Positions 595 through 57,254 of a stretch of DNA of 64,000 nt are shown in pieces (position 1 is the first letter of the stretch; each line of letters opens with the position of its first letter). This DNA is from Candidatus Obscuribacteraceae bacterium (GTDB lineage: Bacteria; Cyanobacteriota; Vampirovibrionia; Obscuribacterales; Obscuribacteraceae). The notes below the pieces were generated by a model. The model was not told the origin of the DNA and did not search any database. It saw only the letters and a list, made by a program, of their open reading frames with translations. The stretch spans positions 1,011,435 to 1,075,434 of the forward strand of contig JBGAHS010000002.1 of the NCBI GenBank assembly GCA_044226015.1. Direction: 5' to 3'. Made by a program: the position numbers and the translations under genes.

Positions 595-619
595 GACGCC
601 TTGAGCCATCCGCAGTTCC
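595..619 (-). promoter_or_regulatory. ECF-type promoter GGAAC-N16-CGTC
   Basis: Exact motif, 43 nt upstream of ATG 551. Confidence 0.8.
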
Positions 620-827
620 CAAACATCGCCTAAGAGCATCAGCATGCCCCCACTTTCGACGGACTGCCGAATCCTCCTATTGCCTGATGATCAGAGCTTT
701 TCAAAGAATTAAGTACGCTCTACATTTTTGCAGCCATATTTTGTTCAATCTGCTTTAATTGTCATTAGCCGACTCGACCAAGGTCTGATCGGCTTCCTGC
801 ATTATTTGAACAGAGCACCGCTAGACG

Positions 828-1553
828 ATGAAAATAAAAAACCTGCTATGGCAGTCAATGCTGCCCGCCATTTTGTGCTGCGTACTTTTACAAGCTTCTT
901 CCCCAGCCAGACCGAATCTCGCTTCAGTGAATACAATAGGCGAGACCAACTATTCAAGCGACCTGGCTTCAGATGGATATTACACATGGTCACCAGACAA
1001 GTTTCCTTTGAAAGTTCATTTTGCGAAAAATGCAAATACACCAGGGTTCAAATCGACAAATGTGGACCTTCTCAAAAACTGTTTTGATGAATGGTCTCGC
1101 GCCTCAGACGGACGAATAAGTTGGGTCGAAACCCAAAATGCCAACGACGCAGATATTGACGTTGTATGGTCAGACCGAGCTGTTGAAGCCAGCCGCGGTA
1201 CCGAAGCTGGCAACACCAGAAACTACGCCAGATATAACCCGGAAACCAATTGGGGAGAGATTGATCACAGCAGAATGCGCCTACTCACAAGATTACCAGA
1301 ACGCGAATTTACTCCAGTTGAAACCAAGAAAGCCTACTTACATGAAGTCGGACACGCCCTCGGCATAGCTGGCCATTCAGCTGACCCCGATGACATAATG
1401 TACTTTTCTGTTTCAAATCATAAGCGAATCAACCTGAGCTTTAAGGATATAGGAACACTGCATTTCCTTTACGAGAACAAAAATTCGAATTCGAATACGC
1501 TCAGCCACGCGAACGTTTACACCGACAGAGCTTCATCTGTGCATCGACCATGA
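828..1553 (+). CDS. Secreted matrixin-like (M10) zinc metalloprotease
   Basis: HEVGHALGIAGH zinc motif and Met-turn DIMY; signal peptide. Confidence 0.85.
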   Translation: MKIKNLLWQSMLPAILCCVLLQASSPARPNLASVNTIGETNYSSDLASDGYYTWSPDKFPLKVHFAKNANTPGFKSTNVDLLKNCFDEWSRASDGRISWVETQNANDADIDVVWSDRAVEASRGTEAGNTRNYARYNPETNWGEIDHSRMRLLTRLPEREFTPVETKKAYLHEVGHALGIAGHSADPDDIMYFSVSNHKRINLSFKDIGTLHFLYENKNSNSNTLSHANVYTDRASSVHRP

Positions 1554-1648
1554 GATGCACGTTCCAAACAGACGGTATCACTCGCTAACCGATACTAATA
1601 GTGATGCTTAGCCAGCACACTTTTCGGGACCTGACTCTAAAAAACTGG

Positions 1649-1673
1649 GGAACTGCACGTTCTCCAGTCCGTC
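1649..1673 (+). promoter_or_regulatory. ECF-type promoter GGAAC-N16-CGTC
   Basis: Exact motif, 49 nt upstream of ATG 1723. Confidence 0.8.
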
Positions 1674-1722
1674 TGCTTTCCACATCCAACACTGGCTTGC
1701 CAGAATGAGGAGAGGAGGAAAT

Positions 1723-2292
1723 ATGAAAGCAAACCTATCGATTAAAGAGATACTCGGGCGCGAATTTCTCGACAATAAGGAGCTTACAGCGCTAAGTGCT
1801 CTTTTAGCGGGCGAGCTCTCAGCGATTCAAGCTTACAATATGGCCATCGACAAAGTGCGCAACAAGCATTTGATACCAACACTCGAAGAATGCCGCAATT
1901 CACATGCACTGCGCGTTCAGCCATTACGTGAGCGAATGGAAGCTCACGGTGCACCGGCACTGCGCAATGCTGGCTGGTGGGGGTCATTCGTGAGCGCTGT
2001 AGAAAACGGCGCCACATTCATTAGCGATCGCGTGGCAATGAGTGTACTTTGCGCTGGTGAAGATTATGGCTTTGAGCAATACGAAAAAAACATGAAAGAT
2101 TTGGATTCGGAATCTTATGAGTTAGTTGATTCAGAGTTACTTCCAGCCCAATCACAGACGCTTCAAACCATGACTCTTCTATGTGCATATTTGAAGTCCG
2201 AAGAGACTAGAATCGCCCAAGAAAACAAACTCAGCCAGGAAGAAACCGAAGATTCTGAGGTTGTGAGCATGAAGAGACCAATTCAAGAATAG
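1723..2292 (+). CDS. Ferritin-like four-helix bundle protein (DUF2383/PA2169-like)
   Basis: LLAGELSAIQAY...H...GEDYG..QY pattern; GGAGG RBS before 1723. Confidence 0.75.
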   Translation: MKANLSIKEILGREFLDNKELTALSALLAGELSAIQAYNMAIDKVRNKHLIPTLEECRNSHALRVQPLRERMEAHGAPALRNAGWWGSFVSAVENGATFISDRVAMSVLCAGEDYGFEQYEKNMKDLDSESYELVDSELLPAQSQTLQTMTLLCAYLKSEETRIAQENKLSQEETEDSEVVSMKRPIQE

Positions 2293-2320
2293 ACCGATAA
2301 GAAGCTTGCGAAAATAATCA

Positions 2321-2347
2321 AAGGGAGGTTCAGATTGAACCTCCTTT
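2321..2347. terminator. Bidirectional intrinsic terminator
   Basis: GGAGGTTCA-gat-TGAACCTCC hairpin between convergent genes. Confidence 0.75.
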
Positions 2348-2348
2348 C

Positions 2349-3450: not shown

Positions 3451-3475
3451 GGAACAATCTCTCAGTTTCCTGGTC
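3451..3475 (+). promoter_or_regulatory. ECF-type promoter variant GGAAC-N16-GGTC
   Basis: One-mismatch motif; no ORF downstream, followed by hairpins and terminator. Confidence 0.55.
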
Positions 3476-3480
3476 TTCAT

Positions 3481-3596
3481 CTTCGAACGAACCGAAAGGT
3501 TCAACCTATCCAGTAAAAAGGAAGAGGTTAAAAAAAGAGCTGAAAAATGCACTTTCCCCTGCAGAAGCGTGATCCCGACTGCAGGGTTTTTCTTTT
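3481..3596 (+). ncRNA. Candidate small RNA
   Basis: Promoter motif upstream; GAACC-GAAA-GGTTC hairpin (3489-3502); second stem 3503-3529; terminator CCCTGCAG...CTGCAGGG-TTTTTCTTTT (3557-3596). Confidence 0.45.
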
Positions 3597-3668
3597 GAAA
3601 CACCAGACAAAGAAAACGGCGCAGCCGTAGTTCCCACAACACGACTGCGCCTGGCAATTGTTCAGTTC

Positions 3669-4664
3669 TTAGGATTGATTCAAATCATCAAGAAGTTTTC
3701 GTGCATTAGATGCATGCCCTAGCTTTCTCAATGCAAGACACTCAATTTGCCTCACCCTTTCACGAGAATATCCAAGCGATCGACCCACCTCTGCTAGCGT
3801 CATTGGCACACCATTGGCGATACCATACCTGAGCTCAAGCACGGAGCGCTCTTGGTCGCGCAACTTAGAGAGAAGTCCTCTAATTTTGTCCTTCAAGACT
3901 ATTTTCTGCACAACCTCGTCCGGATTTAGAGAACGACTGTCTTCCACAAAGTCCTTCAACTCTGCATCAAAATCAGCTCGTGGTTTGCAATCAAGCGATA
4001 CCGGCTCTCGGAATGCAGACCATACCGACAACAAAGTCTCTTCGCTTATTCCCGTTTCTTTCGAGATTTCAGGCAACACTGGACTACGACCTAACTTAAC
4101 GCTAAGCTTTTCGACTGCCTTTCTTACAACATTTCTCGTTTCAGATAGGTGAACAGGAACTCTTATCGTTCTGGAATCATTCGATAGTGCCCTCGTTATC
4201 GCTTGCCTGATCCACCAGGTGGCGTAGGTTGAGAACCTGAATCCCTTCTCGGGATTGAATTTCTCAACAGCCTTCAACAATCCCATATTTCCTTCTTGAA
4301 TGAGATCTTGAAAGCTGAGCCCACGGTTCTTATAATTTTTCGCAACACTAACCACGAGGCGAAGGTTCGACTGCACAACTCGCCTCCTCGCGGCATCGCT
4401 TCCTTTCACTACCTGCCGAAACAAATCTACTTCTTCGGACTTTTGCAAAAGTCGATGTTTGCCTATCTCTTTCAAATACACTTTGATTGAATCGCTTTCG
4501 GTTAAAGACATACCCCGAGTTTCGGGCACACTCTCAGGAGCCTCTGGTTCCGTCGTTTCCTCAAACTCGTTTTCCACATCTAGGAAATCGATATCATCGA
4601 GAATATTCGGCGGACCGAAAGAATCATTTACGTCAAAGGTGCTGTTTTCATCTTGTAATTTCAT
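3669..4664 (-). CDS. RpoD/group-2-like sigma-70 factor
   Basis: [42 protein letters not shown]; likely start MKLQD at 4664. Confidence 0.9.
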   Translation of the reverse strand: MKLQDENSTFDVNDSFGPPNILDDIDFLDVENEFEETTEPEAPESVPETRGMSLTESDSIKVYLKEIGKHRLLQKSEEVDLFRQVVKGSDAARRRVVQSNLRLVVSVAKNYKNRGLSFQDLIQEGNMGLLKAVEKFNPEKGFRFSTYATWWIRQAITRALSNDSRTIRVPVHLSETRNVVRKAVEKLSVKLGRSPVLPEISKETGISEETLLSVWSAFREPVSLDCKPRADFDAELKDFVEDSRSLNPDEVVQKIVLKDKIRGLLSKLRDQERSVLELRYGIANGVPMTLAEVGRSLGYSRERVRQIECLALRKLGHASNARKLLDDLNQS

Positions 4665-4895
4665 ATCTATCGCCGCTGCAAAAGCGCTGATGTAAAGGAA
4701 TCCACAACAAGATTCGCATGCCCTCCGTAGCTCAGCCATCTGAGTTAGATGAGGTATGCAATCATGTCACATTCTAAGCCTAACATGATTTCGGAAACCC
4801 GCAGAAATGAAGCAAAAAGATTCTCTGCAAAACAGTAATTGACGAACCAAAACAGAAATTCGTAACTGCAAGTAAGCTAGAGCGAGCTCAAGAAC

Positions 4896-4958: not shown

Positions 4959-5666
4959 CTACTGAGCAGGCTGAATGGGCAAATCAGTCTGTATTGTTTG
5001 ACCAGCATTTGGAGCTGCTGGCACAAGTGCTTTTGCGCTTAAGATTGCTTGCTCATTTGCAAAAACCGACCAGCGCAAGCCCAGCAATATGGGATGAAAA
5101 CCATAATTCAGCATTTCTCCATAAGCTTTCTTTGCTGTCCAATTCTCCACATTCATTCTGTACATTGCGACCATTGTGCCGCATCTGTCCATTCCCTGAC
5201 GACAGTGAACGAACGTCTTTCCATCTTTATTTGCGCTTACAGTTTTCAGAAATTTATCAACCTGCGACGGAGTAGCTGTTTTGAACACGCTCATCGGAAT
5301 GCTCACAAACTTGAGTCCAAGCTTATGCGCTGTTTGCTTCTCGCGCTCGATGTCCTCCAGTCCATCCCTCAAGTTAACAATAGTGTTAACACCCGCTTTT
5401 TTAAGCGCTTCCAAGCCACCTTCTCGTGGCTGTCCACCTCGAAGAAGCTTTTCCGAAACAACGCCAAAATTAGGAACGACAGTGTTAATTTCCTGGGTAA
5501 GACCAGCACTCAACAATGGAGCTGCGCTGGCTACAGAAGGCGACTGTGCAAAACACACAGGTGCAGCGGCTGAAACAATACAAACTGACAAAATAAAACG
5601 ACCGAGACTCTTAGTCACTAGCGCAATCCTCACGCGAGATCTCACCAACGAATTTGAGTCTAACAA
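4959..5666 (-). CDS. Secreted dual-specificity/tyrosine phosphatase-like protein (Siw14-like)
   Basis: NFGVV..RGGQP, HCRQGMDRCG (CX5R); signal-like N-terminus. Confidence 0.85.
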   Translation of the reverse strand: MLDSNSLVRSRVRIALVTKSLGRFILSVCIVSAAAPVCFAQSPSVASAAPLLSAGLTQEINTVVPNFGVVSEKLLRGGQPREGGLEALKKAGVNTIVNLRDGLEDIEREKQTAHKLGLKFVSIPMSVFKTATPSQVDKFLKTVSANKDGKTFVHCRQGMDRCGTMVAMYRMNVENWTAKKAYGEMLNYGFHPILLGLRWSVFANEQAILSAKALVPAAPNAGQTIQTDLPIQPAQ

Positions 5667-5763
5667 CCTAAAAAAATTACCGCCCGCTCTAGCTCAGGCG
5701 AAATAATACACCATTTCGTTTTTTTTACAAAAGTGCCAAATTACTGATGCCAGGCTGCACTAG

Positions 5764-6876
5764 TCAGCTAGCTGCTCGGTCATCTGACCTATACATACTT
5801 GCATGCTTTGTAATCTGACTGACACCACAAATTTCACCTTCGTGCCTTTCTACGTTTATCAAGTTCATCGATTCAGCAACTTCTTTTGGTACCAGAATTG
5901 TTGCTGCTTGTGGAATAACCGTTACCCTCATTGGAGTTGTAGAATGAAGGTCGCCATCTATCATGCATGGCATTTCAGTAATTCGCGGCTCATCATCTAA
6001 CTTCTCGCGGGTCACAAACTCTACGACTTTCTTAACCATCAACTGAAACGATGAGCGCACTCCGCGCCTGGGCAACACCTCTACGACAGCTTCCTTAACT
6101 CGAAAAAGCATCTCTGGAGCTTTATTCGAAAGGTCTCCCGCAGCATATCGCTTAGTCAGCTGAATAAAGTCCCCCAGCCGCTTAGGATTCATTACATGCA
6201 AATCCAACAACCCATCGGAAAGAAGCCCAATGTCAGCACGTTTTCCTATTCCCAGGTCTTCAACGTTACTCAAAAACACGCCACCTGCCTCGACCTTAAA
6301 TGAGCCGCCCGAAGTAGTAATTCTGAAATGACGACGAGGCCTGGCAATACTGGTAATCAGCGACTTGAAGTAAGCTTTGAGCTTATTTTGGGTCTTTTCT
6401 TCACGTGCTGGCAGCATGAAAGCATCAGCAATGGGTCCGACTCCAGCCATTCCGGCAAAATACTCACCGTTCATCATTCCCATGTCTATTCTCATAGGTA
6501 CGCCATTTTTGATGTATTCATAGGCATTTTTCAGTGGATCGGCCATCAAGTGTTGTTCGATGATACCTATATTCCTTGCCATGACATTGCCAGTGCCCAT
6601 TGGGAAAATAGCCACAGGAATAGAACTCTTTGCTTTGGCGACGGCGGCTAGCGCGAACCTGAGCGTTCCATCACCACCCCCAGCAATGATAAGTTCCAAT
6701 GGATCCTGAATTAAGGGAATCAAGTCATCTGGGGTGGTATGAGCCTCTGTTGGAAAGAAAGATACAAGATATTGATCGTCTTTGTTCAGCTCAGCAACCA
6801 ATTGACCAATCCATTCCTCAGTCTTGACTTGTGACTTGGAGACAGGATTATAAATAACTAGCGCGTGTTTAACCAT
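5764..6876 (-). CDS. Diacylglycerol/lipid kinase family (YegS/DAGK-like)
   Basis: NPVS, GGGDGT, PMGTGN, IDGD motifs. Confidence 0.85.
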   Translation of the reverse strand: MVKHALVIYNPVSKSQVKTEEWIGQLVAELNKDDQYLVSFFPTEAHTTPDDLIPLIQDPLELIIAGGGDGTLRFALAAVAKAKSSIPVAIFPMGTGNVMARNIGIIEQHLMADPLKNAYEYIKNGVPMRIDMGMMNGEYFAGMAGVGPIADAFMLPAREEKTQNKLKAYFKSLITSIARPRRHFRITTSGGSFKVEAGGVFLSNVEDLGIGKRADIGLLSDGLLDLHVMNPKRLGDFIQLTKRYAAGDLSNKAPEMLFRVKEAVVEVLPRRGVRSSFQLMVKKVVEFVTREKLDDEPRITEMPCMIDGDLHSTTPMRVTVIPQAATILVPKEVAESMNLINVERHEGEICGVSQITKHASMYRSDDRAAS

Positions 6877-6988
6877 CTCAGAGTTCCCCGGTTTACGTCG
6901 CTATAGATTCACCATCGACTAAGTAGTTCCCAACTTTTAACTCTGTGTTTGGACATGTTTCGCAAACCATCTGGTAAAACTAGTAGTA

Positions 6989-7474
6989 ATGAAAGATGAC
7001 ACACCCAAAGTCCGAGTGAGAAACTTCCACCAGATTCACGACTGGCTATACCGTGGCGCCCAGCCGCCAATGGACAGTTTTGCCGAACTTAAGGCAATGG
7101 GGGTGAAGACAGTTGTGAACCTGCGCTGGCGCAAGGGTCCTGTGAACAGAGAGCGAGCACGTGTCACAGAACTCGGCATGAACTTCATCCATATTCCATT
7201 GAACTATTGGACACTGCCAAATCGTGCAAACGTTGATGAATTCCTAGACGTATTAGATAAAGAAGAACTGCGCCCGTTTTTTGTCCATTGCCTTCACGGG
7301 GCAGATCGGACAGGAATTCTGTTTGCTATGTACCGTATCTTGCGCTGCCAGTGGAGCTTGAAACAAGCCTACGAAGAAATGGTTCGCTGTGGTTTCCATC
7401 GCTTAGCTACAAGACATTTTAAGTGGGCTCTGTGGCGCATGGTCGCACAGAACCGTGAAAGAACTAAGGTTTAG
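6989..7474 (+). CDS. Dual-specificity/tyrosine phosphatase-like protein
   Basis: NFHQI..LYRGAQP, HCLHGADRTG. Confidence 0.9.
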   Translation: MKDDTPKVRVRNFHQIHDWLYRGAQPPMDSFAELKAMGVKTVVNLRWRKGPVNRERARVTELGMNFIHIPLNYWTLPNRANVDEFLDVLDKEELRPFFVHCLHGADRTGILFAMYRILRCQWSLKQAYEEMVRCGFHRLATRHFKWALWRMVAQNRERTKV

Positions 7475-7478
7475 TTCG

Positions 7479-7503
7479 GGAACTGAAGTAGTCGACCTGC
7501 GTC
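7479..7503 (+). promoter_or_regulatory. ECF-type promoter GGAAC-N16-CGTC
   Basis: Exact motif, 46 nt upstream of ATG 7550. Confidence 0.8.
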
Positions 7504-7549
7504 CCATCTAGCGCAGTGACAATACTTTCGTTCAACAGGTTATAGCAAA

Positions 7550-8320
7550 ATGAATATGCAATTCTCCTTTCGCAATCTCCTTATCATGAGCGTTGTTCCC
7601 GCGGTTTTAGCACTCACGGGATGCAAGGGATTCGGTCAAGTCGACCAGATGTGTTTTTATGGCCCGGTGCCAGATGAAGCCAGAATGAATGAACTAGAAC
7701 ATCTCGGCGTCAAAACGATGGTAGATTGCCGCCAGCGACCTAATCACAAACTCGAGAATGCGCAGCTCTGTGAGAAACACCATATTCAATACATTTTTCT
7801 GAAAACAGGTCTCTATAAAAACCCTGACGAAGCCGTCATGGACAAGTTTGTCACTATGATTAGTGACCCGAAAAATCTCCCCATCTATGTTTGTGATGTC
7901 GCAGCAAAAGATAGAACCCAGTTTTACCTCGCGGTATACCGAATTGCAAAAAATAAATGGACAGCGCAAGATGCATCTTGGAAGATGTACCGTAGCGGGT
8001 TGCGACACTGGTGGCCCTGGTTCTATAAGTTCCCTAGTGTCCTGGAAGCTCACGAGCAAAAATTCAAAAAGGACTTTGACAGACAACACGAACGGGCTCT
8101 CGCTCTTGGTGACAAGACTGACGCTCCGAACGGTCTGGTCTTGAGTAAAACCTCAGACGAGATATTCGCAGAAATGAGTGGCGGCAAAAAAATGAAAAAG
8201 CAGGATAATGAAAAGCGTTCTGTTAGCGAGAAAAAGCCACTCAAAAAAGATGAGCTAGTTGGTCCGAGTGTCATTACCGAAGAAGCTCCAGAGCAAAGCA
8301 GTATTAAGGCTTCTTTGTAA
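7550..8320 (+). CDS. Lipoprotein with degenerate DSP/PTP-phosphatase fold
   Basis: Lipobox LALTGC; LEHLGVKTMVDCR and PIYVCDVAAKDRTQ align with neighbouring phosphatases. Confidence 0.7.
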   Translation: MNMQFSFRNLLIMSVVPAVLALTGCKGFGQVDQMCFYGPVPDEARMNELEHLGVKTMVDCRQRPNHKLENAQLCEKHHIQYIFLKTGLYKNPDEAVMDKFVTMISDPKNLPIYVCDVAAKDRTQFYLAVYRIAKNKWTAQDASWKMYRSGLRHWWPWFYKFPSVLEAHEQKFKKDFDRQHERALALGDKTDAPNGLVLSKTSDEIFAEMSGGKKMKKQDNEKRSVSEKKPLKKDELVGPSVITEEAPEQSSIKASL

Positions 8321-8373
8321 AGCTCTTGAAATAGCAATGTGGCGATAACAAGAAGTAACACGTTACATTTAGT

Positions 8374-9546
8374 ATGGAACAACACCCTCGCGATTTTGCG
8401 AGGGCTCTTGCTTCGCTGAATTTCCTTTTTCGGAGGAGGGCATTCGCAGTGCGCTTTTTTGTTTTCTTTACCATGTCACTTTCTCTGGCAATCGCCAGCA
8501 TACCCTCTTCCGAGGCTCAAATGAGCGCTCTGAAAAACTTTCGTATTTCGAGATCTACCAAACCAGCCGAAGGCGAAAATACGCAACGTAGCCGCTATTC
8601 GGGTGATGGTATCAACGCCCCGTTAACTGGTGGCATCGAGCACCAGGAGGAAGACTCCCTGGTATCTCCTGACGAATTCAAAACGCTGCCAGCAAAATCG
8701 GACAGTTATAGCCGACCATTGTCAGGAATGACAGATAACACGCAACTAAGAGCGAACACCGGCATGAGCAACCTTCGCTCAGGTACAGATGCGTTTAACC
8801 TTAAATCTGGTTTGCTCAACAAAGTTTTGCCCTTGATCCAGGGAAATCCAACAGAAGACGCACTGCCTCCGCTGCCCAAGCTTCACGCAGACGTAAACAA
8901 CGACGAACTAAAAGTTCTCAAATCACGAGACATCGTGATCATGCAAGATCGATCAAGTTCAATGGGAGAGCGTGAAAATTTTCCTGAGGGAATGTTTCCG
9001 CGCTGGTACTGGTGCTTATCGCAAGCGATGGATTTCCGCCGACAAAGCGCACGAATCCCCGACTGGACCTTCAATCTAGTAATGTTCTCCAGTCAATATG
9101 ACGTTTACCGCAGCGTTCGCATGGAAATGCTGCCCACGGTCTTTTCTCGCAATCACATATGGATCGGAACAAAATTGGCCGAGCCTATGGCACAACAACT
9201 GGGAGAGTACTTCCAAAAACGAGGAATGCAGAGACAAGCGAAGCCGCTCGTAGTAGCAGTTATCACCGATGGCAAGCCACAGGATGAAAGCAATCTCAAA
9301 GATGTAATCATAAACGCTACGCACCAAATGCGATACCCGACAGAGGTTCAAATTGTATTTCTTCAAGTTGGAACAGACGATGAAAGCTACAAGAAATTGA
9401 GTAAGCTGGATAATCGATTGGTCTCAAACGGTGCAAAATATGACATTGTAGGCGTAATGCCGTTCAATGAGGTGACGCGCCTTGGGCTTGCAAGAGCACT
9501 CGTTAAAGCTGTGCAGACAGTGCCACAAGCTATGCCGCGCTATTAG
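8374..9546 (+). CDS. VWA-domain protein (start uncertain)
   Basis: MIDAS DRSSSM, VITDG, IVFLQVG. Confidence 0.75.
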   Translation: MEQHPRDFARALASLNFLFRRRAFAVRFFVFFTMSLSLAIASIPSSEAQMSALKNFRISRSTKPAEGENTQRSRYSGDGINAPLTGGIEHQEEDSLVSPDEFKTLPAKSDSYSRPLSGMTDNTQLRANTGMSNLRSGTDAFNLKSGLLNKVLPLIQGNPTEDALPPLPKLHADVNNDELKVLKSRDIVIMQDRSSSMGERENFPEGMFPRWYWCLSQAMDFRRQSARIPDWTFNLVMFSSQYDVYRSVRMEMLPTVFSRNHIWIGTKLAEPMAQQLGEYFQKRGMQRQAKPLVVAVITDGKPQDESNLKDVIINATHQMRYPTEVQIVFLQVGTDDESYKKLSKLDNRLVSNGAKYDIVGVMPFNEVTRLGLARALVKAVQTVPQAMPRY

Positions 9547-9589
9547 GTCGAATCCTTCAACATTGTATGATAAGCAATCAGACTGAAAC

Positions 9590-10714
9590 TCATCCTAGCT
9601 GACGACGGAAACGCCACGCACTGATACTCAATAAAACGGAAGCGCTGATGATCAGAAAGGCGACGTTTGGTAGCAGAACGTCCCACGATGCACCTTTCAA
9701 TAAGCTTTCTCGCACAAACAGAGTAAAGTAACGCAGTGGGTCAAGCTTAGAAAGGCTCTGCAGGAAAGCTGGCATACTTTCAAATGGCACCACGCTTCCA
9801 GACAACTGTATGAGTGGAATACTAATGAAAAAGGACGATAACTGCGCCTGCCGTTGACTTGAGCAAAACGTTCCTAACAGCATCCCGAAACCGATGCAAG
9901 AAACTATGTAGGCTGATGCTCCCATCAGGAAAACCAGAGGATTGCAGAGGAAAGGTAATCCAAAGAACATTCTAGACAAAAGCAAGGCCAAAGTAAGATC
10001 GCACACGAGCAAAAACACCAGGGGCAAAATCTTGGCGAGAATAATCTCTCCTGCCGTAGGTGGAGCCATCAGCAATTGCTCAAGAGTACCATGCTCCTTC
10101 TCCCGCAAAAGCACTGCAGAAGACACCAGTGTTCCAACCACAGTCAGGACAGCACCTAAGACACCGGTGACAAAAAACCAGCTGCTCTTCAATCCCGAAT
10201 TGAATAACATCTTCGTTTCAATATCGACAGCAGGCTTGTGCTCTTCATTAATGTCGGATGGATTGAAATGAGCAGCAATGTCTTTGAGATAAGCTTTGGC
10301 AACATTTGCTGTGTATGCGTCAGTTCCATCAAGAATGGTTTGACTCTCAAGGATATTTTCCTTATTGTATTTTTCTGCAAAATCGCTTGGGATAATCAAG
10401 GCCGCAGAAGCCTTTCCTTGCTCAACCATCTTGTAAGTCTGGTCAGGATTGTTCATTCTCTTGATTGGATTGAAGACTGATGCAGAGCTAAACGCATCTA
10501 CATAATCTCTGCTAATGGCAGTATTGGATTGGTCACAAACTGCAAGACTTAAGTTGTGCAATTCTGGATCTAGAGAAGCAGAGAGAATCAATAACTGCAC
10601 AGTCGGCGGAACAAGCAAAAGATACAATAAAAGCTTGTTTCGCAGTGTCTGCCTGAACTCCTTTTTTACGAGAGCCCAAAGCCTTGAACCTAAGATAGCG
10701 TCAAAAATATTCAT
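9590..10714 (-). CDS. ABC-2 transporter permease (YbhR-like)
   Basis: KEFRQ, REKEHGTLEQLL, multiple TM segments. Confidence 0.9.
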   Translation of the reverse strand: MNIFDAILGSRLWALVKKEFRQTLRNKLLLYLLLVPPTVQLLILSASLDPELHNLSLAVCDQSNTAISRDYVDAFSSASVFNPIKRMNNPDQTYKMVEQGKASAALIIPSDFAEKYNKENILESQTILDGTDAYTANVAKAYLKDIAAHFNPSDINEEHKPAVDIETKMLFNSGLKSSWFFVTGVLGAVLTVVGTLVSSAVLLREKEHGTLEQLLMAPPTAGEIILAKILPLVFLLVCDLTLALLLSRMFFGLPFLCNPLVFLMGASAYIVSCIGFGMLLGTFCSSQRQAQLSSFFISIPLIQLSGSVVPFESMPAFLQSLSKLDPLRYFTLFVRESLLKGASWDVLLPNVAFLIISASVLLSISAWRFRRQLG

Positions 10715-10722
10715 ATGCGCAT

Positions 10723-11826
10723 CTATTCCTTAAACTTCATCTGGCGCCAGGAAAACCAGGAAATCGAAAAAAGTCCCAAGCAAAACAAAATCAAAACTGT
10801 AATATCCTGAACAACTGCGAAGCCGCCCATTCCGCGCTCGAACGAGTCGCGACTTACTTCAATGAAATATCGGGCGGGTACAAGATAAGAGAACAAAGAC
10901 AACGGGAATGGAATATTGCTGATTGGATAAACGAACCCAGACAAAAGCAAACACGTAAAAAACCCCAAACTAGAAACGCCCTGAACTGCATTGCTCTGCG
11001 AATTCGCACACGAACCCAGAGCCATGCCAAACAAAACAGAGCACAGAACATAGATGGGCAATGCAATAAAAAACAACGGCGCACTCGCAAGAAAATGCAG
11101 CCCAAAAATAAAGGTTGCAAGACTGATGATTATCACAGCCTGAGCCAAACCTACGAGTGTGTACACAAGGGCCTTTCCCAGAACAAGCTCATGAGCTTTT
11201 ATGCTAGAAACGAAAACTTGAAGTACCGTCCCCTGCTCTTTTTCTCGCGCCATTGCAACACAAGCCAACAGAGATGGAAACATCCAGAGCACAATGCCGA
11301 AGACTCCTGGCACTATGAATAGCGACTCCTTCAAGCCTGGGTTGAACCACACTCGCAAATTTGGCTTAACCTGAACAGGGGGCTTGTCTATACCGTTGGC
11401 CAGGACAAAATAAGTGCAGGCTCCTCTTATAGTGGCATCTATCAAACGGGCATTAACGATATCAGTGCCATCCACCGAAACGTCAATTGATGTTGGACTC
11501 TTCGATAACAACTTGCTCTCAAAATCTTGAGGTATTGTCACGCTAGCTTTGGTTTCGCTGGCAAGCTCTTTCTCTACTGAAATTGCCTTATCAGCATCTT
11601 GTATGTGCAACGTGTTGGTTGCTTCTAGCCTTTCAATAAATGCTCTGCTGGCAGTAGTCTTACTGTTATCATGCACTGAAACTAAGACGTTATGAGATTG
11701 CATTCGGACTCCAAAGCCAAAGAGCAATAGCGTAATAAGCGGTAGCAGGAATGCCAATGAGAGACTCAAGCGATCGCGTTTGAACTCGCACCACTCTTTA
11801 AGCGCTTGCTCCAGGATATGTCTCAT
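10723..11826 (-). CDS. ABC-2 transporter permease (YbhS-like)
   Basis: WFNPGL, AREKEQGT, multiple TM segments. Confidence 0.9.
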   Translation of the reverse strand: MRHILEQALKEWCEFKRDRLSLSLAFLLPLITLLLFGFGVRMQSHNVLVSVHDNSKTTASRAFIERLEATNTLHIQDADKAISVEKELASETKASVTIPQDFESKLLSKSPTSIDVSVDGTDIVNARLIDATIRGACTYFVLANGIDKPPVQVKPNLRVWFNPGLKESLFIVPGVFGIVLWMFPSLLACVAMAREKEQGTVLQVFVSSIKAHELVLGKALVYTLVGLAQAVIIISLATFIFGLHFLASAPLFFIALPIYVLCSVLFGMALGSCANSQSNAVQGVSSLGFFTCLLLSGFVYPISNIPFPLSLFSYLVPARYFIEVSRDSFERGMGGFAVVQDITVLILFCLGLFSISWFSWRQMKFKE

Positions 11827-17278: not shown

Positions 17279-17303
17279 GACGCGGGGCCACCCTTCCGGT
17301 TCC
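17279..17303 (-). promoter_or_regulatory. ECF-type promoter GGAAC-N16-CGTC
   Basis: Exact motif, 60 nt upstream of ATG 17218. Confidence 0.8.
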
Positions 17304-18875: not shown

Positions 18876-18900
18876 GGAACCACAAAAATGAATTGCCGTC
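18876..18900 (+). promoter_or_regulatory. ECF-type promoter GGAAC-N16-CGTC
   Basis: Exact motif, 65 nt upstream of ATG 18966. Confidence 0.8.
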
Positions 18901-41382: not shown

Positions 41383-41407
41383 GACGCGAGGGCAGCATGA
41401 TCGTTCC
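41383..41407 (-). promoter_or_regulatory. ECF-type promoter GGAAC-N16-CGTC
   Basis: Exact motif, 36 nt upstream of ATG 41346. Confidence 0.8.
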
Positions 41408-43550: not shown

Positions 43551-44057
43551 CTATTTGTGAGCTAACATTGTGTTGACATCAGCAAGAGAGAAGGCTGATT
43601 CATCAAGATCGACTCCTTCTTCCTCAAGAAAATACTGTTTTTCAAGAATAGCTTTGATGTCCTCAGTGATATTCTCGATTTGGTTGGGGGCAACCAAAAT
43701 AAGCCTGGTAGTGCCATTTTTCACAAGATCAGACAATAAAGCGCTTGTTTCGACTCGTGAAGAATCATCCGTGACGGCGATAACCTGTCGCCATAAGATG
43801 TGTTCAGGTTGCCAGAATTCTGGAGGTGCCACCATATCCAGCGGCATGTGAAGAGCCTTAGCCATGTCATAGGCAATAGGAACAGACTGATATCCGAGAG
43901 CTACTACAGCCCACTCTTGGTCTGCATAACAAAGCAATTTTTCAATAAATGCTCTGGCAACTTTAATCTTGCTTTGAAACTGCATAGACATTACCCACCA
44001 GCAATACGGTCTTAATGACACCCCGGTGCATTTAAAGTTCCACGGTTTCCTATTCAC
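43551..44057 (-). CDS. Degenerate phosphoribosyltransferase-like protein (start uncertain)
   Basis: VVALGYQSVPIAYDMAKALHMPLD and VIAVTDD...LILVAP resemble PRT family. Confidence 0.45.
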   Translation of the reverse strand: MNRKPWNFKCTGVSLRPYCWWVMSMQFQSKIKVARAFIEKLLCYADQEWAVVALGYQSVPIAYDMAKALHMPLDMVAPPEFWQPEHILWRQVIAVTDDSSRVETSALLSDLVKNGTTRLILVAPNQIENITEDIKAILEKQYFLEEEGVDLDESAFSLADVNTMLAHK

Positions 44058-47000: not shown

Positions 47001-47406
47001 TCTTGAGAGCATGTATTAAAGCCAGTGTTGTTTCATAAACCTCGACTTTGCCTAACTGAATTTTCTTGAGAAAAATCGAATTTTTCAAATTTCCCAAAGC
47101 GTGAATAGAGTTGAAACCCGGCTTGTCTTGAGCCTTTCCTTCAGGAAGATCTATGTGACGTGAGGAGATAAAACTTGCTACACCCTGATAACGCGGTTTG
47201 CCATCGACGTATTGGAGGTAATCACTCTCGATATCGAACGGAACGAAATCACTTTCACCGCCGCGCGATTTCAGAAACTTATCGAAAGTCTCTTTCCAGG
47301 CTGAAGCATGAAGCTGCGCTGTCTTAGTTACGACGCCATCCATGTCAAAAAGGACAGCCTCATATTTTGAACTGGAAATCACGGCTGACGTTAAACTATT
47401 GCGCAT
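44077..47406 (-). CDS. HAD (beta-phosphoglucomutase-like) + GH65 glycoside phosphorylase fusion
   Basis: FDMDGVV, GKPFPD, EDAEAG; LGNGYL, YQGHVFWD, GPDEYH, NNAYTN, KQADV. Confidence 0.9.
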   Translation of the reverse strand: MRNSLTSAVISSSKYEAVLFDMDGVVTKTAQLHASAWKETFDKFLKSRGGESDFVPFDIESDYLQYVDGKPRYQGVASFISSRHIDLPEGKAQDKPGFNSIHALGNLKNSIFLKKIQLGKVEVYETTLALIHALKKSGAKVAVITASENGRQILKAAGIENVFDAVVDGVDAHTLGLRGKPFPDTFLHAAQELNVEEGNAVVIEDAEAGVEAGRLGQFGLVIGVNRANHRDALIKHGADLVVDDLDEVELAGTKKELASYAVADLGVSDESWSLVFDEYDPSLVGRREALCMLGNGYLACRAASCESVANEIHSPGSYLAGVYDRSLYSSETTSFEYEDLVNIPNWTLLQFKIEDDNWFSIDKVELQKWRQELNLREGILYRFLEFTDKKGRQTAVAERRFVHMRSTHICGIELTFTALNWDGRLTVRSAIDGSVSNIGTRLYSNMGKAHLASLSSEADKNGLFVLVKTRQSNVEIAVCASTYILIDGHEQKGTPNSYAHNGVARNDYELELKRNVRVQVQKMVAVYSSKDFAIASPEAAAKNLVLGRKSSFDLLVEEQKEAWHQLWRRFDLAIETDDVNSRKDISLLLHLHSFHVLQTVCINSVDLDVGVPARGWTEGYQGHVFWDDLFCFPFVNLRLPEVTQSLLKYRYRRLDAAREIARQRGAKGACFPWQSGSSGREETPAAIWYPTRNEWVPDYSHMQIHVNAAIVMDVWQYYQVTGNLEFLYAYGAELVMEIARFFSSIAIWNKDRERFELHGVVGPDEYHVKYPGSEHPGINNNAYTNVMASWCLCRALELIKIIPEDRCDELLERLNVSEEEVAQWNSMSAKFFVPFGESGFIEQFEGYEKLEEFPFYKDEKLDMNKLDKVFGHEGGTFNKYKVSKQADVLMLFYLFSTEELKEIFQHLGYDFDTEAFDLNVDYYIKRTSNKSTLSRVALSWVLSRIDRKNSLKLLSALRNASGENKDAAVVEGKMQMDPEHVGASWGLFREALSSDYMDIQGGTTPEGIHLGAMAGTVDIVQRCYTGMVTRDDVLWLNPNLPKGINRLSFRIQYRHQSVKVDICQRKILVTAGHSSADAIKVGSKDVVELRSGQTVVFDVKTGEVESQHQ

Positions 47407-47430: not shown

Positions 47431-47455
47431 GACGTACCATAAGTTGTACGGTTCC
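47431..47455 (-). promoter_or_regulatory. ECF-type promoter GGAAC-N16-CGTC
   Basis: Exact motif, 24 nt upstream of ATG 47406. Confidence 0.8.
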
Positions 47456-47856: not shown

Positions 47857-47881
47857 GGCGAAGACGCTTTACGAAAGTTCC
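47857..47881 (-). promoter_or_regulatory. ECF-type promoter variant GGAAC-N16-CGCC
   Basis: One-mismatch motif, 34 nt upstream of ATG 47822. Confidence 0.55.
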
Positions 47882-47932
47882 CGCAGAGTTTTTCCGACAG
47901 GACCTTTTATCAAGGTCTGTCGTATGAATTCC

Positions 47933-47957
47933 GGAACAAAAGCTCACAACACCAGTC
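47933..47957 (+). promoter_or_regulatory. ECF-type promoter variant GGAAC-N16-AGTC
   Basis: One-mismatch motif, 31 nt upstream of ATG 47989. Confidence 0.65.
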
Positions 47958-48552: not shown

Positions 48553-49410
48553 CTACGCAACACCTTTATTGGACTTTCGCTTTTTAGGATTAGTTTTTTT
48601 GTCAGGCTCTGCAGGCTTTTCCGATTTTGACCTGGCTTTCTGTTGCTGAAGATTATCCAGGCTGGCTTGCAACGACTCCATAAGATCAAGCACGTTAGCG
48701 CTGGAACTGGTCTTCGAACGCTGAGTTGGTGGAACACCCTCAACTTTTGACTCGATTAACTTCAGCAACTCTTCGCGATAAGTATCTTTGAATTGCTCGG
48801 GCTCAAATGGGGCTGTAAGCATATCAACCAGACTCGACGCCATCTTTTCCTCTGCAGCCGACATTTTCTCGGACGGAGGATTGGCTGAAAGATCAACGTT
48901 TATTTCATCAGGAAAATAAAGAGTGGACAAAAGCAATCCATCACCTACAGGGCGTAATGCACAAAGTCGTTCCTTGGTGCGCAAGGTAATTTTCCCCAGA
49001 GCTATAAGTTTCTTTTCCACAAGCACATGCAATAGCAAACCATAGGCATGCTTAGCTGCTTTATTTGATTCAATGGAATAAGACTTTTCAAAATAGACTG
49101 GATCAACTTCTTCCAGGCGGGCGAACTGCACGATGTCGATCAGATTTTTGCTTGGAACCGGCAGTTTTTCGAAATCGGACTCGGAAAAGGATATGAAATC
49201 ACCTTTCGTGTATTCATATCCTTTTTCAACTTCATCCCATGGCACCTCTCTATCACAAACCGGACACACGCGTTGCTCTTTTATTCGTGTTTTACACTCT
49301 TTGTGAATTTGATGGAAGGCAACACTTTTGCTGCTCGTCGCAGTCTGCAGGCTAACTGGAATATTTACCATTCCAAAACCTATAGAACCTGTCCACATAG
49401 AACGCGCCAT
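48553..49410 (-). CDS. ku: NHEJ DNA end-binding protein Ku
   Basis: RSMWTGSIGFGMVNIPV, KGYEY, DPVYFEKSY, F.PE.FKD.YRE, VLDLMESL. Confidence 0.95.
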   Translation of the reverse strand: MARSMWTGSIGFGMVNIPVSLQTATSSKSVAFHQIHKECKTRIKEQRVCPVCDREVPWDEVEKGYEYTKGDFISFSESDFEKLPVPSKNLIDIVQFARLEEVDPVYFEKSYSIESNKAAKHAYGLLLHVLVEKKLIALGKITLRTKERLCALRPVGDGLLLSTLYFPDEINVDLSANPPSEKMSAAEEKMASSLVDMLTAPFEPEQFKDTYREELLKLIESKVEGVPPTQRSKTSSSANVLDLMESLQASLDNLQQQKARSKSEKPAEPDKKTNPKKRKSNKGVA

Positions 49411-49856: not shown

Positions 49857-49881
49857 GACTAAAAAAATGCCGTGCGGTTCC
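49857..49881 (-). promoter_or_regulatory. ECF-type promoter variant GGAAC-N16-AGTC
   Basis: One-mismatch motif, 43 nt upstream of ATG 49813. Confidence 0.65.
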
Positions 49882-49968: not shown

Positions 49969-51075
49969 TTGCCAAAGCGCAAATCATCAGACAAAGAGCT
50001 TGAGGCAGAGATCGAAGCAACCCTCGATTTGCTTCAAGCTGCAAAAAAGCAAACTGTTATAGAGTTCTCTCAGCACAGAATTGAACTGAGCAATCTTTCC
50101 AAAGTCCTGTTTCCTGGTGACGGCAAATCTCCTGAGCTGACCAAGCGAGACTACTTGATCTATCTTTGCAAGCTGGCACCCGAACTTTTGAGGCACTTGC
50201 ATAACAGGCCGCTCACCATAATTCGGTATCCTGATGGTGTTTTGGGCAAGCGCTTTTTTCAGAAACACTGGATGCACAAGTTGCCTCCTTTCGTTGAAAC
50301 CGTGACCTACTTCAGTGAGCAAAATGATGGAGACAAAGATTATTTACTCTGTAATAACTTCTCCACACTGATGTGGCTCGGACAAATAGCAGCACTTGAA
50401 TTACACACAGTGCACAGTCGCTATGATCAAAAACCCGACGGAAAGTCTCATTCTATGGAAGTGACCGGGTCGGCAGAAATAATCGAGGCTTCAATATTGA
50501 ATTATCCTGATTACCTGATATTGGACCTAGACCCATATCTTTATAGCGGCAAAGAGAAAGAAGGCGATGAGCCCGAGCTACACAAAAAAGGATTTGCGAA
50601 GACATGCAAGGCCGCTCGCACCATCAAAGAAATTCTGGCATCAATGAACCTGGATTCTGTTTACCTTAAAACCAGCGGAAAAACAGGCTTACATGTCTAC
50701 ATTCCAGTAATTCGCAATTGCACAAACGAAGAATTGCGAGCCTTTGCTGGAACCATAGGAAAGCATTTGGTTTCAATCCAGCCAAAGGAGATAACGATTG
50801 AATGGTCTGTAAAGAACCGAACCGGAAAAATATTCTTTGACCACAACATGAATGCCCGAGCAAAGACTCTGCCATCGCCATACTCAACTCGCAATAGTAT
50901 CTATGCTACTGTTTCCACCCCCATCTCGTGGGATGAACTCGAAGATGTTTACCCAACTGACTTCACAGTATTGAGCCTACCAGAGCGCGTCGCAGAGAAA
51001 GGCGATTTGTGGATTGACATTTTGGAAAACAAAACAAACCTGCGACATTTGTTCAATAAGAAAACCCTTGCCTGA
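49969..51075 (+). CDS. LigD primase-polymerase domain protein (stand-alone, no ligase domain)
   Basis: LSNLSKVLFP, RYPDG, FFQKH, LDLDP, KTSGKTGLHVYIP, PYS.R, VSTP..WDEL. Confidence 0.9.
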   Translation: MPKRKSSDKELEAEIEATLDLLQAAKKQTVIEFSQHRIELSNLSKVLFPGDGKSPELTKRDYLIYLCKLAPELLRHLHNRPLTIIRYPDGVLGKRFFQKHWMHKLPPFVETVTYFSEQNDGDKDYLLCNNFSTLMWLGQIAALELHTVHSRYDQKPDGKSHSMEVTGSAEIIEASILNYPDYLILDLDPYLYSGKEKEGDEPELHKKGFAKTCKAARTIKEILASMNLDSVYLKTSGKTGLHVYIPVIRNCTNEELRAFAGTIGKHLVSIQPKEITIEWSVKNRTGKIFFDHNMNARAKTLPSPYSTRNSIYATVSTPISWDELEDVYPTDFTVLSLPERVAEKGDLWIDILENKTNLRHLFNKKTLA

Positions 51076-51234: not shown

Positions 51235-51837
51235 TTAGCTGATCAAATCTGCTAATTCGTCAGCGTGCTCTTCTTCGACCTCAAGAATCTCTTCAAGGAT
51301 GCGACGTGTTGTGGGGTCACACTCTGCCACAAATTGAATCATTTCACGATAGGAATCGATGGCAATTCTCTCTGCAACGAGATTCTCAAAAATCATCTCT
51401 TCGAGTGTTTTTACATCTTTGTATTCAGCGTGGCTCTTTTGGGTCAGCCGATCTGGATGCAAGTCAGGGTCGCCGCCAAGTTGTGTTATGCGCAATGCGA
51501 TTTTGTCAGCGTGGGCTTGCTCTTCGTTGGAGTGAGCGAGAAACTCTTCCGCGACAGGCTCGGAGTCCAAACCTTTGGCCATGAAGTAGTGCTTACGGTA
51601 GCGCAAGACACAGACCAACTCAGTAGCTAACGCTTCATTGAGTATTTTGATAACTGTCTCCTTGTCGCCGGTATAACCTTCAGTTACCGCGCCAGCTTTT
51701 ACGTTCTCTCTAGCTTGCTTGCGCAATTGTTCAACAGGCGTGAAGCTACCATTGTTCTTACACGTTTCCGGCTTGAAATCTTGCTGCCCTGGAACCTTGT
51801 TTCCTTCTACAGCCTCCGAACTTTTTGATTCCTTCAT
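51235..51837 (-). CDS. Bacterioferritin/ferritin-like protein
   Basis: LNEALATELVCVLRY, EEQAHAD, LVAERIAI, EEEHAD. Confidence 0.85.
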   Translation of the reverse strand: MKESKSSEAVEGNKVPGQQDFKPETCKNNGSFTPVEQLRKQARENVKAGAVTEGYTGDKETVIKILNEALATELVCVLRYRKHYFMAKGLDSEPVAEEFLAHSNEEQAHADKIALRITQLGGDPDLHPDRLTQKSHAEYKDVKTLEEMIFENLVAERIAIDSYREMIQFVAECDPTTRRILEEILEVEEEHADELADLIS

Positions 51838-54025: not shown

Positions 54026-54050
54026 GGCGCAAGGATTACAGAATTGTTCC
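54026..54050 (-). promoter_or_regulatory. ECF-type promoter variant GGAAC-N16-CGCC
   Basis: One-mismatch motif, 64 nt upstream of ATG 53961. Confidence 0.55.
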
Positions 54051-54085
54051 GTAAAACCCAAAAACGTGAATCCAAATGAATTCTC

Positions 54086-54110
54086 GGAACAGGAAAATTA
54101 GCTTTGCGTC
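54086..54110 (+). promoter_or_regulatory. ECF-type promoter GGAAC-N16-CGTC
   Basis: Exact motif; implies true start ATG 54154 (43 nt downstream). Confidence 0.75.
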
Positions 54111-55860: not shown

Positions 55861-55901
55861 TAACTTTCAGCTCTGCGTAACTGCAAATTATTCGGATGAA
55901 T

Positions 55902-55936
55902 AAAGGAAAGGAGAGGCAACACCTCTCCTTTCCTTT
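55902..55936. terminator. Bidirectional terminator
   Basis: AAAGGAAAGGAGAGG...CCTCTCCTTTCCTTT between convergent genes. Confidence 0.75.
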
Positions 55937-55967
55937 CACTTTTAGCTTTCGCATTCCAACGATGCAT

Positions 55968-57077
55968 TTACTTTTTCGAGCCAGATTCGGCTTGAACTAA
56001 TTTAGGCTTTTTCACTCCAGCCTTTTCTACAACCAAGTCACCATCAGGCTTGCTAGTCAAAAACAGCGACTTGATTTGGACGAGGGCTCCTGTCTCGGCA
56101 GACTCACGAATTGCGTCCAGCACTTTGACGTCGTTCGCGCCCTCGTAACCATTTGGCACTGGCTCTTTGTTTTCCAAAATGCATTCAGAAAAATGTAAGA
56201 GCTCAGGTGCGAATTGATCTCGCTTTGGGGTCTTGTGTACTTCAGTCTTATCGTCCTTGGTTAGTTTGTATTCAAGTTCTACTTCGTAGTCATAAGCAGG
56301 CTCCATTGAAATAGCGCCATCAGTACCTACGATTTCATAACGAGACATACTCACAGCACCAAAGCTGCACATAAACGAGGCCAGTCTTTCATCAGGAAAT
56401 TTCAATATCACCGCCGCACTCTCCTCGATGTCTTTGAATCGACTGTCCTTACCGTATGTGACTTGTGCCATAACTTCTGTCGGCTCATCACCAAACAAGT
56501 ATCTCGCCGCATTCAAACAGTAGATACCGATATCATTTAGCGGTCCCCCACCTTTCTCTCCCTTGGTGCGAATGTTGTCCTCTTTGACTTGCAGCGTAAA
56601 AGTGGAGTTGAAGACTCGCGGGTCACCAATCTTGCCTGATTTGATCAGGTCAACAACAGTCATGTTTGTCTTTTCAAAGTGAAGTCTATAGGCAATCATC
56701 AACTTCACGTTGTTGCTTGAAGCGGCACGTATCATCTCAAGACACTCGGCTTCTGAAGTAGCCATAGGCTTCTCACAAAGCACGTGTATTCCTGCTTCAG
56801 CAGCCTTCACCGCGTACTCACGGTGCATATCATTTGGCAACGCAATATACACGGCATCAAATGCACCACTCTGTAGTGCTAAATCATACTCTTCGTAAGT
56901 CCAGTTCTTTTCCACCCCATACATTTTGCTGAGTTCGGAAACTTTTTCTGGACTGTCAGAAATAAATGCGGTCAGTTCGCATTTATCTTTCGCATGTCGA
57001 AACGCTGGTAGTACCGCAACTTGGGCTATGTGACCAAGCCCTACCACTGCGAATCGGACTTTTTTCTTATCTGACAT
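55968..57077 (-). CDS. Gfo/Idh/MocA oxidoreductase (glucose-fructose oxidoreductase-like)
   Basis: VVGLGHIA, AVYIALPN..H, HVLCEKPM, GGGPL.DIGIY; GGAGG RBS before 57077. Confidence 0.9.
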   Translation of the reverse strand: MSDKKKVRFAVVGLGHIAQVAVLPAFRHAKDKCELTAFISDSPEKVSELSKMYGVEKNWTYEEYDLALQSGAFDAVYIALPNDMHREYAVKAAEAGIHVLCEKPMATSEAECLEMIRAASSNNVKLMIAYRLHFEKTNMTVVDLIKSGKIGDPRVFNSTFTLQVKEDNIRTKGEKGGGPLNDIGIYCLNAARYLFGDEPTEVMAQVTYGKDSRFKDIEESAAVILKFPDERLASFMCSFGAVSMSRYEIVGTDGAISMEPAYDYEVELEYKLTKDDKTEVHKTPKRDQFAPELLHFSECILENKEPVPNGYEGANDVKVLDAIRESAETGALVQIKSLFLTSKPDGDLVVEKAGVKKPKLVQAESGSKK

Positions 57078-57141
57078 AACAATTCCTCCACGAAACATTC
57101 AATCGAATGTTTTAAAGATCGCAATCCTTGATTCGAGAGCT

Positions 57142-57166
57142 GACGGCACGCTAGGAACCTGGTTCC
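57142..57166 (-). promoter_or_regulatory. ECF-type promoter GGAAC-N16-CGTC
   Basis: Exact motif, 64 nt upstream of ATG 57077. Confidence 0.8.
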
Positions 57167-57229
57167 TGCTGAGTTTTCCATGAGCGAAGAAAGACGCTGG
57201 CTTGCAAATACGTAATACGTAAATTGAAT

Positions 57230-57254
57230 GGAACTCAAAGCATAGAGCTCCGTC
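57230..57254 (+). promoter_or_regulatory. ECF-type promoter GGAAC-N16-CGTC
   Basis: Exact motif, 29 nt upstream of ATG 57284. Confidence 0.8.

Follow-up and report, generated by a model that had tools for sequence, protein, structure and literature searches.

What reads the promoter-like motif that recurs along a stretch of 64,000 nucleotides (nt) from the genome of a Candidatus Obscuribacteraceae bacterium (contig JBGAHS010000002.1, positions 1,011,435 to 1,075,434; this whole stretch is called the window below)? A sequence-only reading had described the motif, GGAAC-N16-CGTC, as the hidden promoter of a sigma factor of the extracytoplasmic function (ECF) kind that drives a physically clustered general-stress regulon. 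Our analysis suggests that SigG-type (ECF25) sigma factors of this genome quite probably use the motif as their -35/-10 promoter, with the SigG encoded on contig C7 (19045-19674) as the motif's founding reader. The motif marks ~90 gene starts across the genome, and 23 of these lie in the window.

The motif and its distribution

All 15 exact copies were found at the coordinates and on the strands given for them, and the low chance expectation was borne out by 100 dinucleotide shuffles of the window, which held 0.32 copies on average and at most 2. Other spacers (N10-15 and N17-23) yielded 0-2 matches each. Behind every exact site a same-strand ATG follows after 24-65 nt, as had been claimed; the site at 54086 and the first ATG of a long open reading frame (ORF) at 54076 overlap, and an in-frame ATG at 54154 sits 43 nt downstream. 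The listed NGTC (6/6) and CGCC (3/3) variants are all present, one of them, 3451(+), having just a 27-codon ORF and no called gene behind it. Two further gene-proximal variants had been overlooked, namely TGTC at 44017-44041(-) and AATC at 6906-6930(-). Sites also occur back to back as divergent pairs (28429/28454, 33596/33662, 47857/47933, 54026/54086 and 57142/57230).

The genome (8.19 Mb in 13 contigs, completeness 92%) carries 6373 genes as called by our own simple script. It contains 82 exact matches, compared with 25-55 for other spacers. A genome-wide check of position and orientation, which had been proposed together with the motif, found 54 of the 82 at most 150 nt before a same-strand start; with six other spacers, 1-4 of the 25-55 matches were so placed. 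The -10 words that are enriched in upstream regions are CGTC (56 vs 2.1), AGTC (25 vs 4.4) and CGCC (20 vs 4.8), and CGTT is not one of the 20 that rank highest. Upstream regions hold GGAAC-N17-GTC 94 times, compared with 25 times for the N18 spacing and 10-17 times for most others; the core is GGAAC-N17-GTC, mostly ending in -CGTC. With NGTC and CGCC included, 99 intergenic gene-proximal sites were obtained (15 of 114 lay inside coding sequences and were dropped) against 8-13 in the controls, at a median distance of 49 nt from the start codon. Motif, spacer and gene-proximal position support the proposed ECF-type promoter, and judging from these features the sites are very probably promoters.

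Of the 99 sites, 23 lie in the window and six in the next best 60-kb stretch, so that the window, with 61 of the 6373 called genes, is the densest part of a regulon spread over the whole genome (hypergeometric p ~4e-27). The claim of a clustered regulon thus stands as far as the strong local clustering (hereafter the island) is concerned, but 76 of the 99 sites are located outside the window. The -10 words of island and dispersed sites are identical.

An N-terminal hydrophobic segment, detected with a crude hydrophobicity rule that stands in for signal peptides, is encoded by 68 of the 99 first genes, versus 30% of all genes, and the regulon is therefore an envelope regulon as much as a general-stress one. 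Eighteen targets outside the window were hand-chosen for Pfam searches and 12 of them matched: M48 (HtpX-type), OmpH (Skp), CsbD, MIP, 4-TM holin, MscS, HlyD, class-A penicillin-binding protein (PBP), AsmA, TonB-C, TPR and hydrolase. General-stress-type genes of the regulon comprise CsbD, Ku, ferritin-like, GT20, CBS, YtxH and DUF2383. Such genes are indeed present downstream of the window sites, as had been stated, but GT20 (otsA-like), Ku and ferritin-like are not the first genes and sit behind small upstream ORFs; upstream of the LigD-pol gene (49969-51075) no site was found. Outside the window, two group-2-like sigma genes have exact sites upstream, and the site before one of them, C11:1374560, is kept in 30/30 best orthologue loci (of 37 matched; N16/17-CGTC). 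The spacer of this promoter (L277-L306) is unusually conserved, ATTTTAATAG-like, and one base longer in 11/30 loci, hinting at an overlapping element.

For related genomes the wrong spacers N19-22 served as baseline; a reversed-pattern control was discarded, being about twice as common as the wrong-spacer patterns. Of 24 same-family genomes, 21 have an N16 count above the N19-22 mean (Poisson p<0.01); G008 (58% complete), G009 and G011 (SigG match not found) do not. No excess was seen in G011, G030 and G036, and with the query used no SigG match was found in 12 of 14 genomes of family f5 and in both genomes of genus g5 that were searched. Motif clusters with orthologues of window genes, in rearranged order, exist in G001 (contig C10, ~293-327 kb and 392-412 kb), G006 (C14) and G002 (C219), and window-gene orthologues in G001, G002, G006 and G021 retain their sites despite differing spacer sequences.

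SigG and the site inside its gene

As had been noted, the window contains no ECF gene. The genome as a whole has 17 matches to sigma70 region 2, comprising nine group-1/2-like proteins, two SigF-like proteins and six ECFs. The sequence-only reading had proposed to list the ECF genes and look for the motif upstream of them; it was found upstream of none of the six, but a perfect copy lies inside the coding sequence of one, C7:19045-19674 (SigG), at codons 148-156. This ECF groups with cyanobacterial SigG in a maximum-likelihood tree (~47-54% identity) and its score passes the ECF superfamily cut-off, though no NCBIfam equivalog cut-off. When the sets of the tree were checked, photosystem II reaction-centre genes were present in 5/5 tested genomes of the SigG set and in 0/5 of the 'other class' set. 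The 80 best relatives come mostly from Ca. Obscuribacterales, Obscuribacteraceae or Melainabacteria, and the guess of a melainabacterial host was right, the host being a Ca. Obscuribacterales genome.

The gene that follows sigG (C7:18152-19048) encodes a predicted single-pass anti-sigma, which has 298 amino acids, three HxxxCxxC/zf-HC2 units and one predicted transmembrane segment (243-261). Three such zinc anti-sigma (ZAS) units were counted in 70 of the 80 orthologue loci, some of which are truncated. The gene after it encodes a secreted-type protein with a weak Metal_resist match (E 0.001, below cut-off), predicted to be a periplasmic CpxP/Metal_resist-like protein.

Such an arrangement is known from cyanobacteria. 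The predicted promoter of ECF25s1 is GGAAC/GTC and resembles the motif of Nostoc SigG, and ECF25 is described as acting in envelope stress, with SapG as its single-pass anti-sigma (PMC7826278, partial text). SigG of Nostoc punctiforme (Bell et al. 2017) is described second-hand in PMC7826278 and PMC6495340 (partial texts), and in Synechococcus PCC 7002 sigG and sapG are co-transcribed and their products interact (PMC2758279, partial text). The nearest known system is SigG/SapG and not EcfG, with which the motif had been compared earlier.

All 80 Obscuribacterales sigG orthologues retain CCG GAA C.. and ATC GTC at the site, and the Arg, Thr and Ala codons of the spacer use many synonyms. Elsewhere in the same genes the four codons of the site are used at 0.29, 0.59, 0.29 and 0.33. 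Codon-invariant are five of 116 conserved degenerate columns, all five in the site, and the maximum outside is 0.89. The distance from the site to the anti-sigma start is 136-179 nt (median 158). Among 41 loci from other Vampirovibrionia families, hand-picked or taken from a search for sigG relatives, the intragenic site is exact in 25 and its core is present in 27; the site persists in 15 of 29 loci with a G+C content of at most 0.39, and its bases stay the same where the encoded residue differs (Q to H, I to V, P to E). In 30 further loci, the genes of which partly overlap the earlier sets, the intragenic site occurs in 13/13 with a downstream zinc anti-sigma and in 0/17 without one. At the same position no site was found in 25 oxygenic cyanobacteria, 11 other-class ECFs and those of the SigG duplicates (see below) that were examined.

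An upstream site, GGAAC-N17/18-GTC, shows the opposite distribution. It is present in 23/25 oxygenic cyanobacteria and in 11/11 other-class loci (three of these, at 33-37% identity, are perhaps not orthologues of SigG), whereas 1/41 other Vampirovibrionia and 24/80 Obscuribacterales have it (wrong-spacer controls 0-3). It is absent in the remaining 56/80 Obscuribacterales, and none was found before sigG of this genome. Transcription of the anti-sigma module from the intragenic copy, as a negative feedback, seems likely.

In the mechanism that we propose, envelope damage would free SigG from its predicted single-pass zinc anti-sigma, in the way reported for SigG/SapG of Nostoc, a trigger that analogy with SapG and RseA makes on balance the better guess. 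Freed SigG would transcribe envelope, general-stress and group-2 sigma genes and, from the intragenic site, the anti-sigma and its periplasmic partner without sigG itself; because this genome has no upstream autoregulatory site, the loop would be one of pure negative feedback. As to evolution, we tentatively suggest that at the base of the Vampirovibrionia the ancestral SigG autoregulatory promoter moved from its place upstream of the gene into the codons, turning positive-plus-negative into pure anti-sigma feedback. In Obscuribacteraceae, duplicates of SigG that lack an anti-sigma and travel with Ku/LigD/ferritin/trehalose islands may then have made this envelope-stress promoter the basis of the lineage's general stress response. 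This response, which would include a conserved step from ECF to group-2 sigma, would be analogous to RpoS, SigB and EcfG but of independent origin.

Several observations weigh against the proposed mechanism. Sequence cannot tell which SigG-family copy reads which promoter. Kin are not independent and the p values across genomes overstate; some genomes with SigG only show almost no excess (G009 +5.5, G132 +3.5). The intragenic site is missing from 14 of the 41 other-Vampirovibrionia loci, 13 of which lack the upstream site too, and 24 of the 80 Obscuribacterales sigG genes have the upstream site as well, so that the swap is incomplete. Finally, Ku is a weak candidate for a conserved direct target: of the 30 Ku loci that score best, only 5 have a site immediately before the gene.

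Other readers and known systems

Extra SigG-like genes without an anti-sigma are frequent in Obscuribacteraceae, and this genome has two (C11:1011766 and C5:136041). Ten of the sampled duplicates, both of this genome among them, form a supported clade (100/98), and five others fall outside it, in unresolved positions. The duplicates retain the residues at E. coli positions 80, 171, 172 and 176 (N80, K171, S172, R176) and all but one keep D84; positions 84, 171 and 172 are specificity determinants (PMC7776599, partial text). Having the same DNA-reading residues, the two duplicates of this genome likely read the same promoters and would add a second input.

They may even be the main drivers: the island could be switched on mainly by the SigG duplicates under transcriptional control, with SigG serving the dispersed envelope genes. 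We regard this as a possibility of some weight, though short of probable; it is compatible with the explanation preferred here, because the difference is limited to who drives the island. Apart from the clade and the retained residues, it is favoured by the position of duplicates within or beside stress clusters in G001, G002, G021, G098 and G041 (and, by coordinates, G051), by the presence of Ku in 47/62 genomes with at least two SigG-like copies versus 4/19 with at most one, and by the motif excess per Mb (median 5.0 in 16 multi-copy genomes versus 2.0 in 8 genomes). However, Ku is missing from 15/62 multi-copy genomes, and kinship, genome size and contamination are confounders of these correlations. 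Neither duplicate of this genome is located in the island, the SigG-only genomes G057, G114 and G012 still show an excess, island and dispersed sites share their -10 words, and a site within ~1.5 kb accompanies 9 of 17 duplicate loci but not the other 8. Also in its favour, four duplicates (L014, L015, L221, L165) have a common upstream element, AAACCC ... CCTG/C, exactly 25 nt before a TAnnnT hexamer, which suggests activation by another regulator at a sigma70-type promoter; the element is not enriched elsewhere in the genome.

That the motif is instead read by an EcfG-type (PhyR-NepR) system, or by one of three unrelated ECFs (C1:118313, C10:281235, C2:65855), appears improbable. GGAAC is a common ECF -35 element, alphaproteobacterial general-stress regulons are similar in gene content, and the ECF at C1:118313 likewise has a zinc anti-sigma and R171/S172. 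PhyR/NepR-like partners had been proposed as something to look for, but profile searches of the 92%-complete genome gave no match to NepR (PF18557), with a positive Caulobacter control, and for PhyR (NF006623) only two receiver-domain matches of ~46 bits against a cut-off of 240. As CGTT is not enriched either, the EcfG/PhyR/NepR system was rejected. The three other ECFs have no motif within 450 nt upstream or inside the gene; the frozen copy is found in sigG only.

Even less probable is that the motif is the binding site of an ordinary transcription factor or a promoter for group-2 sigmas that flank the island. Two group-2-like sigma70 genes, 3669-4739(-) and 57595-58638(+), had escaped notice in the window; these paralogues bracket the cluster, and the orthologue of the window sigmas in G007 lies ~7 kb from a SigG duplicate. 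However, the site is non-palindromic, bipartite and strictly oriented, with a spacer fixed in length and free in sequence, at a median of 49 nt before starts, and ECF25 genes carry the motif as their upstream site. RpoD-like region 2.3-2.4 reads TATAAT-like elements, and both window sigmas retain an RpoD-like sequence there, on which grounds they were rejected as readers of the motif. A chance or compositional artefact, for which the ~40 exact matches per genome expected at any spacer might be cited, is vanishingly improbable given 15 copies against 0.32 in the window, the specificity of spacer, orientation and position, and the conservation across genomes.

With SigG-type sigma factors as the preferred readers, three known systems invite comparison. 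Cyanobacterial SigG/SapG shares the orthologous ECF, a zinc-type single-pass anti-sigma at position +1, the GGAAC/GTC promoter and, as far as the partial texts cited go, envelope-type targets. It differs in the autoregulatory site, which is upstream in the oxygenic cyanobacteria (23/25) and inside sigG in Vampirovibrionia; the three ZAS units of the anti-sigma (70/80 loci) and the duplicates without anti-sigma also set this lineage apart. The targets in this genome include classic general-stress and group-2 sigma genes, the regulon of Nostoc SigG being compared here by its second-hand description.

In E. coli, rseAP3 is a sigmaE-dependent promoter inside rpoE that transcribes only negative regulators (PMC8595263, partial text). 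The RpoE-RseA-RseB system thus has in common with ours a promoter inside the sigma gene that points toward the anti-sigma, an equal -35-to-GTC spacing and a Skp-type envelope target, but also keeps an upstream sigmaE-dependent rpoE promoter (same source). As rseAP3 is located at rpoE codons ~116-124 and the site described here at the equivalent of E. coli codons 139-147, ~23 codons later, an independent origin is likely. The general stress response of E. coli belongs to RpoS.

Alphaproteobacterial EcfG (ECF15) likewise drives general-stress content from an ECF, its regulon including CsbD, Ku/LigD, trehalose-type and ferritin-like genes; the likeness in target genes is one of function only. It belongs, however, to another ECF group; the -10 element here is GTC and not GTT, NepR and PhyR were not found, and control by a membrane zinc anti-sigma is predicted instead. 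EcfG1/EcfG2 of Rhizobium etli is a functional parallel to the duplicates, with an extra copy away from its cognate anti-sigma that acts in parallel (PMC3892343, partial text).

The promoter class and the sigma family are already known. We found no study of sigma regulons in Melainabacteria or Obscuribacterales, in a search that was weak on subscription papers, and PMC11119718 does not mention Melainabacteria. Obscuribacterales are nearly all uncultured, and the motif provides a ready list of ~90 promoters per genome along with a likely sigma/anti-sigma pair, a system that is testable in E. coli reporters without culture of the host. Oxygenic cyanobacteria and other classes have the site upstream of sigG and Vampirovibrionia have it inside the gene, which offers an unusually clean natural comparison of feedback layouts around one orthologous ECF. 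Motif searches restricted to upstream regions would miss the intragenic promoter in Vampirovibrionia.

Features of the window

The sites, the genes behind them and the two sigma genes are as follows.

595-619 (-), exact site, 43 nt before the gene of a 135-amino-acid secreted-type protein (144-551)
1649-1673 (+), exact site before a DUF2383 (ferritin-like) gene (1705/1723-2292)
3451-3475 (+), GGTC variant, followed by the 27-codon ORF (3547-3630) and facing the 3' end of the sigma gene 3669-4739(-)
3669-4739 (-), group-2-like sigma70 gene (regions 1.2, 2, 3 and 4); no ECF site found upstream; not the likely reader of the motif
6906-6930 (-), AATC variant, 29 nt before a DAGK-family gene (5764-6876); in G001 the orthologous gene is preceded by a CGCC site at 32 nt
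7479-7503 (+), exact site, with a dual-specificity phosphatase-like gene (7550-8320) behind it; the G001 and G006 orthologues retain the site
17279-17303 (-), exact site before a TPR protein gene (16166-17218), from which a same-strand run of TPR, HlyD and ABC genes extends down to 9590
18876-18900 (+), exact site before a 106-amino-acid gene, after which come GT20 (otsA-like, 19347-20828) and a TPR gene
23441-23465 (-), exact site before the gene of a 92-amino-acid secreted-type His-rich protein
25268-25292 (+), CGCC variant, 23 nt before a bifunctional-nuclease (BFN) gene (25316-25843)
26884-26908 (+), exact site before a cupin gene
28429-28478, divergent pair: exact site 28429-28453(-) toward a CBS gene (27888-28400), AGTC variant 28454-28478(+) toward Zn-ribbon and nitroreductase genes
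33596-33686, divergent TGTC variants: (-) toward patatin and AMP-binding/acyltransferase genes, (+) toward a hemerythrin gene (33708-34148)
35453-35477 (+), exact site before a gene of 72-77 amino acids
35805-35829 (+), exact site before an 86-amino-acid secreted-type gene
41383-41407 (-), exact site before a class-A PBP (transglycosylase-transpeptidase, 39076-41346)
44017-44041 (-), TGTC variant, 25 nt before a gene (43551-43991) that is followed by a CHAD gene
47431-47455 (-), exact site before a HAD-GH65 fusion (44077-47406)
47857-47957, divergent variants, CGCC(-) and AGTC(+), in front of two small genes of secreted/lipoprotein type
49857-49881 (-), AGTC variant before a 128-amino-acid gene, with Ku (48553-49410) 17 nt beyond and LigD-pol (49969-51075) divergent
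54026-54110, divergent pair: CGCC(-) toward YtxH, YflT-like, 295-amino-acid and ferritin-like (51235-51837) genes, exact site (+) toward an ABC1 kinase, 43 nt from its likely true start at 54154
57142-57254, divergent exact sites: (-) toward a Gfo oxidoreductase, (+) toward a 51-amino-acid gene, then a terminator-like hairpin (57469-57485)
57595-58638 (+), second group-2-like sigma70 gene, 57-59% identical to 3669-4739 and separated by the hairpin from the site at 57230

The GGTC variant at 3451-3475(+) is a candidate promoter of a small RNA, an antisense transcript or a peptide. Between the 106-amino-acid and GT20 genes a strong hairpin with a T-rich stretch (~19300-19345) may limit read-through; the GT20 gene of G001 has a motif site of its own. 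No Rfam family or tRNA was found in the window.

The two window sigma70 paralogues bracket the island and are each other's closest relatives within the genome. Among the same-genus genomes (n=5), a closer relative exists only in G007 (56%), at the position near a SigG duplicate mentioned above. As direct targets of the motif both were rejected, the gene at 3669-4739 having no site upstream and the one at 57595 being separated from the site at 57230 by the terminator-like hairpin.

From position 60007 of the window onward (C1:1071441-1080087) lies the gene of a poly-HAMP/GAF hybrid histidine kinase of 2125 amino acids that has three receivers, and the next gene encodes a 727-amino-acid receiver-kinase protein; this pair, bordering the island, is a candidate second input. 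The G+C content of positions 1-58000 is 45.8% compared with 47.3% for the genome, and 6 of 134 equal-sized stretches are as low, which is only a weak hint of foreign origin. The block at 4959-14695, with three dual-specificity-type phosphatases, a DAG-kinase-like gene and an HlyD/ABC transporter, is kept in rearranged form in G001 and G006, together with motif sites.

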